From Anolis carolinensis (taxonomy: Eukaryota): a stretch of 64,000 nt of DNA. Below the pieces are notes generated by a model, which was given only the letters and a program-made list of their open reading frames with translations, was not told where the DNA came from and did not search any database. A program made the position numbers and the translations under genes. The stretch lies in assembly GCF_035594765.1 (NCBI RefSeq), contig NC_085842.1, positions 308,931,749 to 308,995,748 of the forward strand. The letters run 5' to 3'. Below are positions 25,087-34,200 of the stretch, in pieces (position 1 is the stretch's first letter; the number at the start of each line of letters is the position of its first letter).

Positions 25087-25221
25087 CTATGGTAGATTAA
25101 TTGCCTGATCCTCATTAAATCTTGGGATCTTCTTAAACTCCTCTTGTTTTTTGAAGAAAAGTTGGGCCAATATATGGTCTGCTGTGGCATGAAAATAGTC
25201 ATCCATATCAAGAGTTTGCAA
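25087..25221 (-). CDS. Exon 9, terminal (LQTLDMDDYFHATADHILAQLFFKKQEEFKKIPRFNEDQAINLP*)
   Basis: Acceptor TTTTTCCAG; TAG at 25089-25087; LQTLDMDD and EDQAINLP repeat domain 1. Confidence 0.9.
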   Translation of the reverse strand: MQTLDMDDYFHATADHILAQLFFKKQEEFKKIPRFNEDQAINLP

Positions 25222-28200
25222 CTGGAAAAAAAGAAGCTTTGAATTAGATGACCTAACAATGTTAGGTTAAAATATACATATTTGTTGATGGTACACGAAC
25301 AAGTTCAGAATGCCATCTATATTGTGTCTTTTAAAGCTTCTTCCACCCATGACTCCTTTTTGTCTGACAGGTTTTTTTTTTCACAACCCCTTTTCTCCTA
25401 AGAAATTTTTACATGACCCTGGATTAGGTATATAAAGCAGGTGTAAAAATCAAGAATTTATTGACAATATATCAGCATTTGCAAGGCTTGCTAAACAGGC
25501 TGATTTTCCTTTTAATAAAGTAGACTGGAAGCATTTTCTGCAACTGTAAACACTGCAAGTTGTTGCTAACAAATTCATGTAATTGTCTAGATGATGTCCA
25601 GAAACATTTTACTGTTTCCAATTTTTCCACAATCCTAATATTGAGCAGAGAGGACCCCATTTGTGTTTGGGACCCACAGTTTAAGGGGCAGTGATCTTTG
25701 CAATATGTACAGGTTATGCATCTCTTATGTGAACTTTCAGAAACCAAAATATACTGAAATCCATACTTGTCCATGTGGCTGTCACCTTTGCTTCCTTATG
25801 ATTCAATATACACAAAGTTTGTTTTATTCACAAAATTACGAAAAATATTGTGTACAAAATTACTTTCAGGCAATGTTTATACAAAACACAAATGGTATTT
25901 GGATTTGGGTGCCATTTCCAAATATGTCTTTATGCATATATGTGCAAATAGAAATTCTCCAAAATTTGATGTGTATGTATGGGGGGGGGGAACCTGAAAA
26001 TTAAAACCAAGTCTAGTATGACATATTCAACCTGTACCATCACCAGCATGATTCACCCCTCCACATGCCACCTGGACAATGTGATGTATCCCCACAACCA
26101 CCACTCTCTAAACCTGAAAGAATATGACTTGCCCAGCATCAGTCACTGGGATCCATGACTGAGCATGTATTCAAATCCTGGTCTCCCAAGTGTCCTAGTC
26201 CAATTCTCAAATCACTATACCACACCAGCTCTTGGTTCAGATTTCTCACCTGATTTCCAGTGCTGAATGCCAAAATGAACAGCAAGTCCTCATCACACGT
26301 ACTCTTGATGTAGTGTTGTGTGCCAACTGGGAAAAATACAACATCTCCAACACCAATGGTGAAGTCAGTACTGAGCGAATGTGAAACAATAACACCTACC
26401 TGGAGAAAAGAGGCATTGAAAGAAAATAGGAAAACTGATTTTGTAATGATCCCCTGAAAATTCAGCTCTTTGACATATCAGCAAGACAAAATCAGAGGCT
26501 TAAATATCCAGGACATTTGGAATTTAAGGATTTCCGAGCAGTGTGTGCTTTTTATTAGTTCATTCTTTCTTTCATTCTTGCTGAAAATGGGATCACTTTG
26601 GTTCTCCTGATTTACAGCAAACAGCCCCATATGTGGGGGTTTCCCATCTGATTTCCTTCACAGTGCTTTCACCGCACAGGTTTTGAAAAGGCTCGCTCCC
26701 ATCAAAGTTGTTTAAATGAACAGCTACCTTTCCACACCCACTGATGACATATCCCATCTCATTGGCATTGAAATGAAAATGAGGCTGGCGAAGACCAGTG
26801 CTATAGATCCGGAGTGTTCCCAACGTAAGTGTATCTTCCTTCTAAGAGCAAACATAACAACAAAATATGAGCAATTGGATTTATGTGAAAGCAACAGTTC
26901 ATTGTGGCAGTGATCTACAAAACCTATATTGTCATTAGCTGCTGTATTTCCTGCTATAGTTTTTGTTCTTGTTTGTTTGTTTTTAAATAACTCCAAATTA
27001 TGGAGTATTCAGTGGCAATTCCCAATATAAGAAGCAACATTTTATTCCTGCCCAAAGAGTAAGCCAAAGAGCCATGGGGGAGGCCACATATTATCTATAA
27101 GATTCCTACCTATTATTTATATACATTGTTGGTGTTTTGATATATTTAAAAATATCAACTTCATATTTTGCATCAGTTTTTAATATTAAACACCCCACCC
27201 TACTATTTGATAAGGGATTCTGTTGTTTGATCTAGTCTGGTCAACCATAGAAAAAAAACCTAGATGTCACACCTATACACTTACCGAATGGAGAAACTCG
27301 CTGTAAATTCTTTCATTGGGTTTCAAGCCTTTTCCATCTTTCACATATCGAGCCCACTGAATTATTCCACCAGGAAAACGAAACTCAGTTGACCCTAAAT
27401 TGAGCACCAAACAGCAGCCTCAGAAAGCAGGAAAATTAGCAATACAATATTTATTAGCTCAAATTGTTTACTAAGTGATCCCTGCAGATTGAGCAGAGAT
27501 CATAAATGTGTATAGAGCACTCTGAATGTCTAAGATTCAACTTCAACTTATTACACTCCAGATGGAAGAAGGGAAGACCCTTGGCTGATGAGTAATACTG
27601 AGATAGATGGACCAATGGTATGAACGTAGTAAGCCTTTGTCTTTTACTAGCTAGCTTGGTGTAGTGTTTTACACATTGGACTAAGATTATGATGACTATG
27701 GTTTAATTCTTCACATGGTCATGGATGGCCTTGGGCAAGTAACATACTCTCAGCTCAGATAGCCCCATGATAGGGTTACCATATGGCAGAAATAACTTGA
27801 AGGCACACATCAAGTGTTAATAGCAAGAACTGATTAGGCAATGCTGAAAAACATAATTGTGAATATATTTAATATATGCTGCTTCAGAGTGGTGGAATCA
27901 TCTTCTCTGGAGGTTTTAAAACAGAGGCTGAATGACCATCTGTTGGGAGTATTTTAACTGTGTATTCCCACATGGCAGAATGGGTTTGGACTGGATGGCC
28001 CCTGGGATCTCTTTTGACTGTATGGTTCTTTTTAAACTTTCTTTCTTTAGAAACAAGCAAGATGACATGTAATAGATTCCATTACTCATTTCGGACATTC
28101 CTTAGCTTTATCGGTTTCCTGTGGTAAAATCACCACTTCCTTACTATTTCATAACTTTGGGAAGATGTCCCCCTTACTGATTCCAAAGACTGTATGACCT

Positions 28201-31200: not shown

Positions 31201-34200
31201 AACACAACTGTTTACTCACAACTAGCAGGGGTTTTGCCAGAATTATTAATCTTGATTAAAAAGAGAAGTCAGCAATGGCACCCACCAATGTTTATTAGTT
31301 TTAATAAGTTCAGTAGGGATACTTGGAGCCTTTCCACTTTAAACTGCAAAATCAGAAACTTCTTCCACAGATACTGGATTCTATACAGGTCTAGCAGAGT
31401 ATGTCTTATTAAGGTCTGGTTTAAGACTATTAATTTCTGTAAAAATTGATTTTAAATGATCCTTCCAAACCTGATCTTGAATAACACAACTTAGGGCTTG
31501 AGATCAAGAGCATAAAGCTCCTGAGAGAAGCTGCCAAAACATTTTTGCATCGTTATTAAGTGAGGCGTTCAGCAACAGCAACCATGAATTAAGTTCATGC
31601 TGATGCTTTTTACGGGCCAGTGGGGTTTTATATTCCATTTTCAACTGAAAAAAGTAGAAGGAAGATGGCATGACCTCTATATTCTATATAAAATAGAAGA
31701 GGCTCTTCAGACTTTTTTCTTCAATTGGCACTTCTTGTCAAGCCAAATAGTTTCTATGAAATTGGGAGAGTCTGCACCAGAGCGAGAAGGAATGTTGGAA
31801 CCCAGATGGCATTTTCAAAACGTGTTTCCCCATCTCCAGCTGTTTAATCATTATTTCTGCACAAGAGTGGGTGCTATCCCTTTTAAGCATGTTGATCATT
31901 ACTACCTGCCATAAATAAGTATTTTTTTTTAAAAAAATAAGATATAGAACTAACCAAAGTTGTACCTTTAAGAGATAGCCCTGCTCATTGGCATTGAAAT
32001 GCCAGTGTGGAGCCCGCAGCCCTTGGCTCTTGATCCGTAATGTTCCAAAGGTCATCTGGGAGCGCTGAGCATTGATGCTTCTTCCAAATGCCATCTCTTC
32101 CTCATTCTGGTATTCTTTGGCATTTTTCCTAAATCTAGCCCACTGAATAGTACCACCTGGGAATTCATGTTTCTGGAAAAGCCATAGAAGCACAAAAGTA
32201 TTTGCCATAACTTAATAACAGTAAGTATAGATGTTTTAAAATGTGAAATAATTCTTTGTGGCCCATAGATCCCGATCCTGAACTTTTGATTTTAAGAATA
32301 AACAAACAAACCCAGTCTTTTGCCATCTTTATTAACTGCTGATCAAAATTTCTTTGTTAATGCCGTCCATCTCTTTGAGAATATTGAACATGAGTTTGGT
32401 GATAGGCAAGAACATTTCAGGATAAATGGTAAAGTAAAATGAAAGCATGAATCACAGCCCAACGGAAGCATGTTATTATATAAGCATTTAATATGCCTAT
32501 TTTCAGTTACTTAAAAACGCCAAGGAGGATGGTGCACATGAACAGATACTATACAATTAAAACATAGACCTCCCTCATCAAACAAAACTGATCTTGAGGA
32601 AATTCTCAATGGAGCTATGCCTTCCAAGTGCTGCTGGGGTTTCGGAGGATTGTAGTACAGAGGGAAAGGGTTAATCTAGGGGTGTCAAATTCATTTTCAT
32701 CGAGGGTCACATCAGTCTTATGATTGCCTTCAAAGGGCTGTTTGTAATTGTGTTTGTTGTTGTTTATTCGTTCAGTCGCTTCCGACTCTTCGTGACCTCA
32801 TGGACCAGCCCATGTCAGAGCTCTGTGTCAGCCATCGCCACCCTCAGCAATTTCAAGGTCAAGCTAATTCAAGGTAATTGTAAGACTGTATAAATGTAAC
32901 TACCCTGTTTTCCCGAAAATAAGACCTAGCAGAGGTTTTGCTGAATTGCTAAATATAAGGCCTCCCCCGAAAGTAAGACCTTGCAAAGGTTTTGTCTGGA
33001 AGCATGCCTGCCAGACAGAACACCAGAGCATGCAGGATAGGTAAATGTACATACGAGTTGTACATGGAAATAATGGTAATAACAAGAAATTCTTGACAGG
33101 AGTCAAAGTTTGTCTGGTTTGGTTATGTTGGTTTGTGATGAAAACTACTGTACAGTATATAATAAATGTTCAATTTTTTTGTTCAACAATAAATGTGAAT
33201 TCTTCTTCATGGAAAAATAAGACATCCCCTGAAAATATGACCTAGTACATCTTTGGGAGCAAAAAATAATATAAGACACTGTCTTATTTTCGGGGAAACA
33301 CAGTATGTTGTCTTGGAACTGAAAGCCTTGTGAGCTACATAAAATGATGTGGCAGGACAGATTTGGCCCATAGGCTTTGTGTTTGACACGTGTGAGTTAA
33401 TCACTTGCCCAGAGGACCATGGTTCCAATCATCAATCAGGCCTCTTTCAGCTGATAGATAAATAATAGCTTAAAACGCGTGTCAAATGTTTATATGATAG
33501 AACAAGATGGAAGAAGTGTAACCAGGTAGTTTGAAGTCATTGATGGTCTCAAGGGAGCGGTGAATCATGATATTATATAAGTATTACAGGTAAGGAGATT
33601 CCACCTGAATATTAGGAAGAACTTCCTAACTGTGAGAGCTGTTCAGCAGTGGAACTCTCTGCTACAGAGTGTGGTGGAGGCTCCTTTCTTGGAGGCTTTT
33701 AAACAGAGGCTGGATGGCCACCTGTCGGGGGTGCTTTGAATGCGATTTTCCTGCTTCTTGGCAGGGGGTTGGGCTGGATGGCCCAACCTCCTCTTCCAGC
33801 TCTATGAGTCTATGATTTAATATGCCTATTTTAATGATTAAAAATACGAGAGGAGATTGTGGACATAATCAGATATTACTGTATGCAATTAAGACATAGA
33901 CTCCCTCAAACAAAACTGATGTTGGGGAAATACTCAATGGAACTATGTTTTCTAAGATCAACATCAGTGGTGCTGTAGGAGGAGGAGGTTTTTGTAGGAC
34001 TGTAGTTCAGAGGTAAAGGATTAATCACTCTCCCAAAATACCATGGTTCCAACCCTCAATCAGCTGATAAGCAAGGAATTGGTTAAAATATGTGTTAAAT
34101 GTTTATGTGTTAATGTGACTCCTAGAACAAGAAGGAAGAAATGGAACTAGAAATGTTGGAGTCGTCTATGGTCCCGAGACAGACTGCTTACAATAGGGTG

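Follow-up and report, generated by a model that had tools for sequence, protein, structure and literature searches.

CUPIN1 of Anolis carolinensis, a predicted membrane-anchored bicupin of jawed vertebrates with an algal relative and a possible horizontal origin

A 64,000-nucleotide stretch of the Anolis carolinensis genome (contig NC_085842.1; here called the window) carries on its minus strand, at positions 25087 to 32172, the cupin part of CUPIN1, an already named, little-studied gene of jawed vertebrates. This interval contains seven coding exons of one gene, and two more lie upstream (34912 to 35151 and 40784 to 40870). Our reading, held with somewhat less than even confidence, is that CUPIN1, which is conserved across jawed vertebrates, encodes a cell-surface, membrane-anchored, two-barrel manganese (Mn) enzyme whose first barrel degrades oxalate or some similar small acid. 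The closest nonvertebrate relative that we found by sequence comparison is a bicupin of the green alga Klebsormidium nitens, not a bacterial protein. A horizontal origin of the gene is possible but unproven, with horizontal and vertical descent about evenly placed. The new elements are the algal sister protein, the rejection of an origin of the two halves from those of oxalate decarboxylase (OxdC), and a conserved asymmetric active-site pattern in a gene reported to be lost in human and mouse.

Identity and phylogenetic range of CUPIN1

The A. carolinensis RefSeq protein P0183 (478 amino acids [aa]) matches every exon in the window (tblastn) and consists of a CLLAC transmembrane (TM) domain (PF15675; E = 8e-9) followed by two Cupin_1 stretches (PF00190; E = 8e-35). 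RefSeq annotates it as "dynactin-associated protein," a name that presumably derives from the CLLAC helix common to DYNAP. The lizard gene is the ortholog of the CUPIN1 genes of cat, pig, and cow, whose records bear the name "cupin superfamily member 1"; they have the same CLLAC-TM and two Cupin_1 domains and the same position next to C18orf54/LAS2, with no difference of substance (identity to the lizard protein, 69% for cat and 66% for pig).

A search with one exon matched 129 proteins, and the ortholog and motif counts given here were taken over 120 of them. All named orthologs in this set are from jawed vertebrates (i.e., cartilaginous fish, one bonefish, amphibians, reptiles, birds, and mammals), and whole-protein identity among 26 aligned orthologs is 51 to 96%. 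The bonefish (Albula) is the only ray-finned fish in the set, and no other teleost, lamprey, or invertebrate is among the matches listed. In this Anolis genome, CUPIN1 is a single locus: a one-exon search gave two matches, which are the two halves of the gene, and the CLLAC family has one match in the whole genome, inside CUPIN1.

The loss of CUPIN1 in human and mouse is reported, without further detail, in the TOGA2 preprint. Broken or truncated models in pangolin (P0128) and grey whale (P0142) suggest further losses. We found no study of the function or origin of CUPIN1 in the literature covered, which left out most subscription papers. The sole tissue pointer is a hint from sheep caecal epithelium, for which a figure legend names CUPIN1 among the differentially expressed genes (PMC10100782); the word "cupin" is absent from the supplement text of that article.

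Relatives outside vertebrates

The link to the alga came through P0179, an unnamed 73-residue metagenome fragment that is 48 to 50% identical to vertebrate CUPIN1. With P0179 as the query, the single protein found among 58 candidates was a 467-aa K. nitens bicupin (P0226; GAQ88714; annotated as "oxalate decarboxylase"), to which the fragment is 76% identical. This algal protein is colinear with CUPIN1 along its full length, with 134 of 394 aligned residues identical (34%; pairwise E = 2e-62) and a similar repeat spacing (200 versus 204 residues). It shares the IQWAR strand, both His/Glu motifs, and a hydrophobic N terminus with CUPIN1, as well as an insertion of approximately 17 to 21 residues that is present in all four vertebrate and algal halves and absent from the 11 bacterial proteins compared. 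It differs in that its leader stands at the very N terminus (a predicted signal peptide) and has no CLLAC match, its tail is rich in Ala, Gly, and Pro and lacks the EDQAINLP segment, and its lid Glu is in half 2. Contamination as the cause of the algal link was considered and judged unlikely, given that the source of P0179 is a separate metagenome record and that identity to the vertebrate proteins is only 34 to 48%. P0179 diverges from the Klebsormidium protein just after GTAQV (residue 72), at the alignment column of a vertebrate half-2 intron (GCGK|V; window position 26728). This breakpoint, seen at the protein level, may mark an intron that the vertebrate C half has in common with the N half of the algal protein.

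Bacterial relatives are more distant. Plasmid-borne bicupins are approximately 25% identical to CUPIN1, and four plasmid records gave per-domain scores of 47 to 62 bits. The best solved relatives by sequence are OxdC and MncA (E, ~1e-17). By fold, the two tie with Z scores of 26 to 27 (root mean square deviation, ~5 to 7 over ~310 residues), MncA ranking first, and seed globulins follow at a Z score of ~25. Germin oxalate oxidase (1FI2) matches far less well (E = 3e-5).

No invertebrate, fungal, or other protist relative was among the named matches listed in the protein searches, which used an insensitive word index. Strict motif patterns applied to 185,579 prokaryote genomes gave 9 and 17 stretches, none of which was confirmed, and proteins of the GLREPHWH type would escape these patterns. 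A pattern scan of viral contigs gave 32 matches, none confirmed as a relative, and phage records gave no match. A metagenome scan with P0179, which did not recover the fragment's own contig, yielded one bacterial-type bicupin (L003, included in the trees below) and one spurious locus (L004). In the ESM Atlas, the nearest clusters were Cupin_1 mono- and bicupins of bacteria and fungi (0.93 to 0.95), together with one chordate cluster, and gave no discrimination.

Duplication independent of OxdC

The original prediction, made from the letters of the window, described a cupin with two unusually similar halves, and every repeated block that it listed is present on the minus strand: FPGG(T/I)IQWAR at 32163 and 27377, GTLRI at 32046 and 26820, GLR(A/Q)PH(W/F)HFNANE(Q/M)GY at 32022 and 26796, LQTLDMDD at 29142 and 25221, and EDQAINLP at 28385 and 25113. 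The halves align with 76 of 174 residues identical (44%), and their local alignment score of 351 is well above those of 1,000 shuffles (mean, 29.5; maximum, 56). The word "unusually" is too strong, since the similarity lies toward the top of the usual range and is not exceptional. Measured by one method throughout, half-to-half identity is 42% in Anolis, 30 to 45% in 14 vertebrates, 34% in Klebsormidium, and 24 to 38% in 10 bacterial bicupins.

The predicted independence of the duplication from that of OxdC-type bicupins held up in tests of tree topology. The approximately unbiased (AU) tests covered 30 of 51 halves (8 of 14 vertebrates and 6 of 11 bacterial proteins), and a mixture-model tree covered 22 halves; fungal OxdC, germins, and spherulins were outside these sets. 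A derivation of CUPIN1 from an OxdC-type bicupin, transferred or inherited with each half coming from the matching OxdC half, might be expected from the rank of OxdC as the best solved relative, but on a sample of six bacterial bicupins the pairing of vertebrate halves with OxdC halves was rejected in both orientations (P = 4e-5), and it was rejected again with all bacterial halves (P = 2e-4). The insertion described above, found in no bacterial row, likewise stands against this derivation, which we consider extremely improbable. By the same test (P = 4e-5), descent from the N and C domains of the oxalate decarboxylase family (TIGR03404) does not apply to the CUPIN1 halves.

Vertebrate and Klebsormidium halves form one clade with a support of 100. 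Within it, the best trees unite the two vertebrate halves (bootstrap, 93 under LG+G4; 89/81 under the mixture model), with most of the signal in the later part of the repeat, including a tail that is unique to the vertebrate halves. A duplication shared with Klebsormidium is disfavored by 10 log units but not rejected (AU P = 0.068). Pairwise scores lean toward such a shared duplication: in 13 of 14 species, the vertebrate N half matches its algal counterpart better than it does the algal C half, and, more weakly, the vertebrate C half has the algal C half as its better match in 9 of 14. In a quick mixture tree that covered all 51 halves, the algal N half was not resolved from the two vertebrate halves.

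The intron discordance between the two halves was reported correctly in the original prediction. Half 1 has introns at alignment columns 9, 78, and 157 (all phase 0), and half 2 has them at columns 6 (phase 1), 44, 82, and 133 (phase 0), so that none of the seven positions is common to the halves; GYLLK|G and GYVISGCGK|V are 4 codons apart, and LQTL is exon internal in one half and exon initial in the other. The absence of a shared position is the right observation, but it is an ordinary one. For three and four randomly placed introns, the probability of any shared position is 0.022. Because unshared positions are the default expectation, the discordance is uninformative about gene transfer, of which it had been taken as a sign; with chance sharing at only about 2%, it argues solely against a scenario in which blocks of exons were duplicated and their introns did not move thereafter. 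Intron sliding was considered for the two near-coincident pairs (8 and 12 nucleotides apart) and rejected, since such proximity is within chance (P = 0.079). The related proposal that an intronless mono-cupin was duplicated and gained introns later stands in part. Present introns would postdate the duplication, given that no position is shared and that exon ends are conserved among vertebrates, while no mono-cupin of the CUPIN1 subfamily was found. We suggest that one cupin unit of the vertebrate/Klebsormidium subfamily would have been duplicated before the jawed-vertebrate radiation and that the present introns would have been gained afterwards.

Metal sites, asymmetry of the barrels, and predicted function

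A single hydrophobic helix (residues 36 to 62 of P0183) and a sequon at N199, which is matched in 113 of 120 records and fits barrels outside the cell, make a type II topology with extracellular barrels very probable. Each barrel has an H-x-H-x4-E motif and a distal His, giving two intact 3His-1Glu motifs. The site 1 motif matched in 104 of the 120 records and the site 2 motif in 110, and the third His matched in 119 (site 1) and 111 (site 2); the misses, not all of which were inspected, include several short isoforms or partial models and one failure of the pattern with intact ligands (P0117). Mn or a similar metal is very probably bound at both sites.

The barrels differ around these ligands. 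The site 1 Arg (R164, equivalent to Arg92 of OxdC) is conserved in all 104 motif-matching records, and the middle residue of HxH is Trp in barrel 1 (104 of 104) and Phe in barrel 2 (105 of 110). The lid position is occupied by Glu in barrel 1 (Glu235, aligned with OxdC Glu162; 112 of 114) versus Gln in barrel 2 (103 of 107), and the site 2 Arg (26788 to 26790) is replaced by Gly in 16 records, all of them from birds (P0001, P0031, P0063, and 13 more). The near invariance of Arg164, Trp168, and lid-aligned Glu235 in barrel 1, set against the Gln and Phe of barrel 2 and the loss of its Arg in birds, suggests that barrel 1 is probably catalytic and barrel 2 structural or auxiliary.

This pattern recalls Bacillus subtilis OxdC (1UW8 and 1J58) and Synechocystis MncA (2VQA), which share with CUPIN1 the bicupin fold, two 3His-1Glu sites, the Arg of R-x-x-H, an acid at the lid-aligned position of barrel 1, and Trp in the barrel 1 HxH. 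The structural identity is approximately 18 to 20%, and CUPIN1 differs from both by its separate duplication, membrane anchor, and sequons, by Phe in place of Trp274, and by a lid two residues shorter. In OxdC, each barrel binds Mn through three His and one Glu, Arg92 aids substrate binding, and Glu162 on the lid is the proposed proton donor (PMC3585803, PMC6850040). By analogy, CUPIN1 likely works like an OxdC-type Mn enzyme yet outside the OxdC family. That its substrate is oxalate, processed by the OxdC route, is our best guess, though a tentative one on the doubtful side; in that event, an Mn-bound oxalate radical would form at barrel 1 and protonation by Glu235 would give formate and CO2, while H2O2 would result instead if the shortened lid stays open.

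Several observations weigh against this functional assignment. MncA and other metal cupins use the same ligands to other ends. The predicted local distance difference test (pLDDT) score of the structural model is below 50 at residues 233 to 277, and because of this unreliability and the two-residue shortening of the lid, Glu235 could fail to reach the metal. Against the oxalate decarboxylase family model TIGR03404, the lizard, chimaera, and frog proteins score 108.9, 94.0, and 104.6 bits, respectively, versus a cutoff of 254.2. The lid Glu of Klebsormidium is in the second half and not in the first. Finally, of the electron relay pair Trp96/Trp274 described for OxdC (PMC11966277), the equivalent of Trp96 is kept in CUPIN1, while that of Trp274 is replaced by Phe, as in 105 of 110 barrel 2 motifs.

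The same protein might perform other chemistry, as an Mn oxidase or superoxide dismutase (with germin-like production of H2O2), as a dioxygenase acting on another substrate, or as a metal binder without turnover, and we regard this as nearly an even prospect. It would accommodate the shortened lid, since changes in the lid of OxdC convert the enzyme to an oxidase (PMC3585803), as well as the missing Trp274 equivalent, the score below the OxdC family cutoff, and the tie of MncA with OxdC by fold; against it stand the nearly invariant Arg and lid-aligned Glu, which are confined to barrel 1 and repeat the OxdC pattern, and a germin oxalate oxidase match that is far weaker than that of OxdC (E = 3e-5 versus 1e-17). 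The Pro before the first His is also found in germins. CUPIN1 has two barrels, in contrast to the single barrel of germins and spherulins. Extracellular Mn cupins acting on oxalate are known in the form of the Ceriporiopsis bicupin oxalate oxidase and the plant germin oxalate oxidase (PMC3585803).

Horizontal or vertical origin

CUPIN1 could have come from a nonanimal lineage, a proposal to which we give slightly less than even weight. It is favored by the restriction of the family, among named matches, to jawed vertebrates and one alga, by the lack of a paralog in the genome, and by introns that postdate the duplication. Against it, the lizard-to-Klebsormidium distance is 1.7 to 2.0 changes per site, approximately 4 times that from lizard to ray (0.4 to 0.5), and a ratio of this size is also attainable by vertical descent from the common ancestor of plants and animals. 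Moreover, Klebsormidium is the only named nonvertebrate member found, too small a sample for a judgment on nesting, and the searches were so insensitive that the P0179 query missed vertebrate proteins 48% identical to it.

The alternative is that streptophyte algae and vertebrates both retained an old, already duplicated secreted bicupin of eukaryotes, which was lost or is merely unseen elsewhere and gained its introns later in the ordinary way. This scenario is credible, though we place it somewhat short of even. The full-length colinear match with its similar repeat spacing, the preference of the N half for the algal N half in 13 of 14 species, the compatibility of the distance with the plant-animal split, and the AU value of 0.068 for a common duplication are all consistent with it, and the searches were too insensitive to rule out invertebrate orthologs. 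It fits less well with the absence of invertebrate, fungal, or other protist members from the named matches listed, with trees that unite the vertebrate halves (93; 89/81), with a C-terminal tail found only in those halves, and with a C half that favors its algal counterpart in only 9 of 14 species.

Three specific routes considered under the original prediction found no support. For a bacterial donor, the nearest relative found is algal and the bacterial bicupins are only approximately 25% identical. For retroposition, no parent gene was found in the genome in an exon-level search with one exon. For fusion to a host TM exon, the sole genomic CLLAC match is CUPIN1 itself, and in the algal protein a hydrophobic leader stands just ahead of the same first strand. 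A combined scenario, in which an animal mono-cupin was retroposed, duplicated while intronless in the host, and fused to a preexisting DYNAP-type TM exon, would account for the unshared introns, for the grouping of the vertebrate halves, and for the occurrence of a CLLAC helix without a cupin, before a Thr-rich tail, in mammalian record P0113. We nevertheless judge it very improbable, because the one-exon search returned two matches that are the two halves and no parent cupin gene, the one lizard CLLAC match is in CUPIN1, the ray ortholog P0066 already has CLLAC, and the Klebsormidium leader is at the matching place. Fusion is unneeded, since the ray has CLLAC, the lizard is without a separate CLLAC gene, and the alga has a leader; an ancestral secretion leader would likely have turned into the membrane anchor.

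On the same grounds (i.e., the sole lizard CLLAC in CUPIN1, the ray CLLAC, and the algal leader), DYNAP is more likely a daughter of the 5' exons of CUPIN1 than their source. Mammalian DYNAP resembles CUPIN1 in its CLLAC TM exon and its place beside C18orf54, and human DYNAP presumably has no cupin. In P0113 (residues 469 to 801), a second CLLAC helix with a long tail rich in Thr is attached to a CUPIN1-like protein, which would be expected had a DYNAP-like neighbor arisen from the first exons of CUPIN1. Human DYNAP adjoins C18orf54 at 18q21.2 (PMC4868023).

Exon structure, splicing, and neighboring sequences

The features of the gene are listed in Table 1. Between the TM exon and the last exon, all seven joints are seen as canonical CT..AC skips in contigs, which come from runs guessed to be RNA (no run is recorded as RNA, and the tissue is not stated): six joints are in runs X8, X9, and X10, and the TM-exon joint is in X8, X11, and X12. 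Contig pieces start at 35151/35152 and then splice from 34912 to 32172; the joint of exon 1 with exon 2 is not among the contig rows listed. The alternative 5' exon would yield an isoform without the TM helix and the first cupin strand. Vertebrate CUPIN1 intron positions look stable: 54 of 62 short database records (most of them unnamed) stop no more than 2 residues from an exon boundary of the lizard gene, and the part missing from one bonefish gene model corresponds exactly to the lizard exon 26250 to 26399.

Table 1. Features of CUPIN1 in the window
Feature	Position	Strand	Evidence
Exon 1; coding start ATG, predicted cytoplasmic tail of 29 aa	40784..40870	-	tblastn with P0183, 100% identical; donor GT next
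Exon 2; CLLAC motif, predicted TM helix, stalk, first cupin strand (VDPKFQF)	34912..35151	-	PF15675, E = 8e-10; contig splice 34912 to 32172
Alternative 5' exon; in-frame ATG at end	34592..34669	-	Spliced from 34592 to 32172 in X10 and X12 contigs (one study)
Half 1 exon a; FPGGTIQWAR, subfamily-specific insertion, metal motif 1	31966..32172	-	Sequence, half alignment, contig joints
Site 1 motif R-A-P-H-W-H-F-N-A-N-E (R164, H167, W168, H169, and E174 of P0183)	31984..32016	-	R aligned with OxdC Arg92
Half 1 exon b; third His ligand (29206-29208), lid-aligned Glu235 (29143-29145)	29074..29307	-	Alignment, contig joints
Half 1 end (EDQAINLP), linker, half 2 start; ends at sole phase-1 intron	28277..28430	-	Alignment, contig joints
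Half 2 exon a; FPGGIIQWAR and insertion	27285..27394	-	Alignment, contig joints
Half 2 exon b; site 2 motif R-Q-P-H-F-H-F-N-A-N-E (26758-26790)	26728..26841	-	Alignment, contig joints
Half 2 exon c; third His ligand (26313-26315), Gln at lid position	26250..26399	-	Alignment, contig joints
Last coding exon; LQTLDMDD to EDQAINLP, stop TAG	25087..25221	-	Alignment, contig joints

At position 32108, in the first cupin exon, the contigs of all covering runs (X8 to X12) have G where the window has T (plus strand). This difference looks like an allele; UniRef P0003 has Pro at this position and the window Gln. The upstream neighbor is LAS2/C18orf54, with long LAS2/C18orf54-like open frames on the minus strand at 54894 to 56735 and a Pfam PF15792 match at 54897 to 55724 (E = 6e-4, below the cutoff). 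Mammalian records fuse the CUPIN1 and LAS2 genes under LAS2 names. Elsewhere in the window, a reverse-transcriptase-like frame at 4214 to 5329, with repeated flanking frames on both strands across 3967 to 5611, was read by eye as a retroelement copy.

Implications

Taken as a whole, the picture in which jawed vertebrates have their own oxalate-degrading surface enzyme, horizontally acquired from a nonanimal lineage before sharks and humans diverged, duplicated separately from OxdC with a convergent asymmetry (i.e., catalytic N barrel and structural C barrel), and lost in human and mouse, is unlikely. Microbial OxdC is under development as a drug for hyperoxaluria. If the picture were true, it would help explain why the two species studied most, human and mouse, seem to lack oxalate catabolism; a conserved OxdC-type vertebrate enzyme that is missing from both would have escaped study. 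In humans, oxalate is described as a metabolic end product that is broken down only by gut microbes (PMC11966277). CUPIN1 could also bear on oxalate handling in herbivores, birds, and reptiles. Should it prove inactive on oxalate, it is still a well-conserved protein with metal sites and no known function, and its link to Klebsormidium provides a clear test case for ancient gene transfer into vertebrates.

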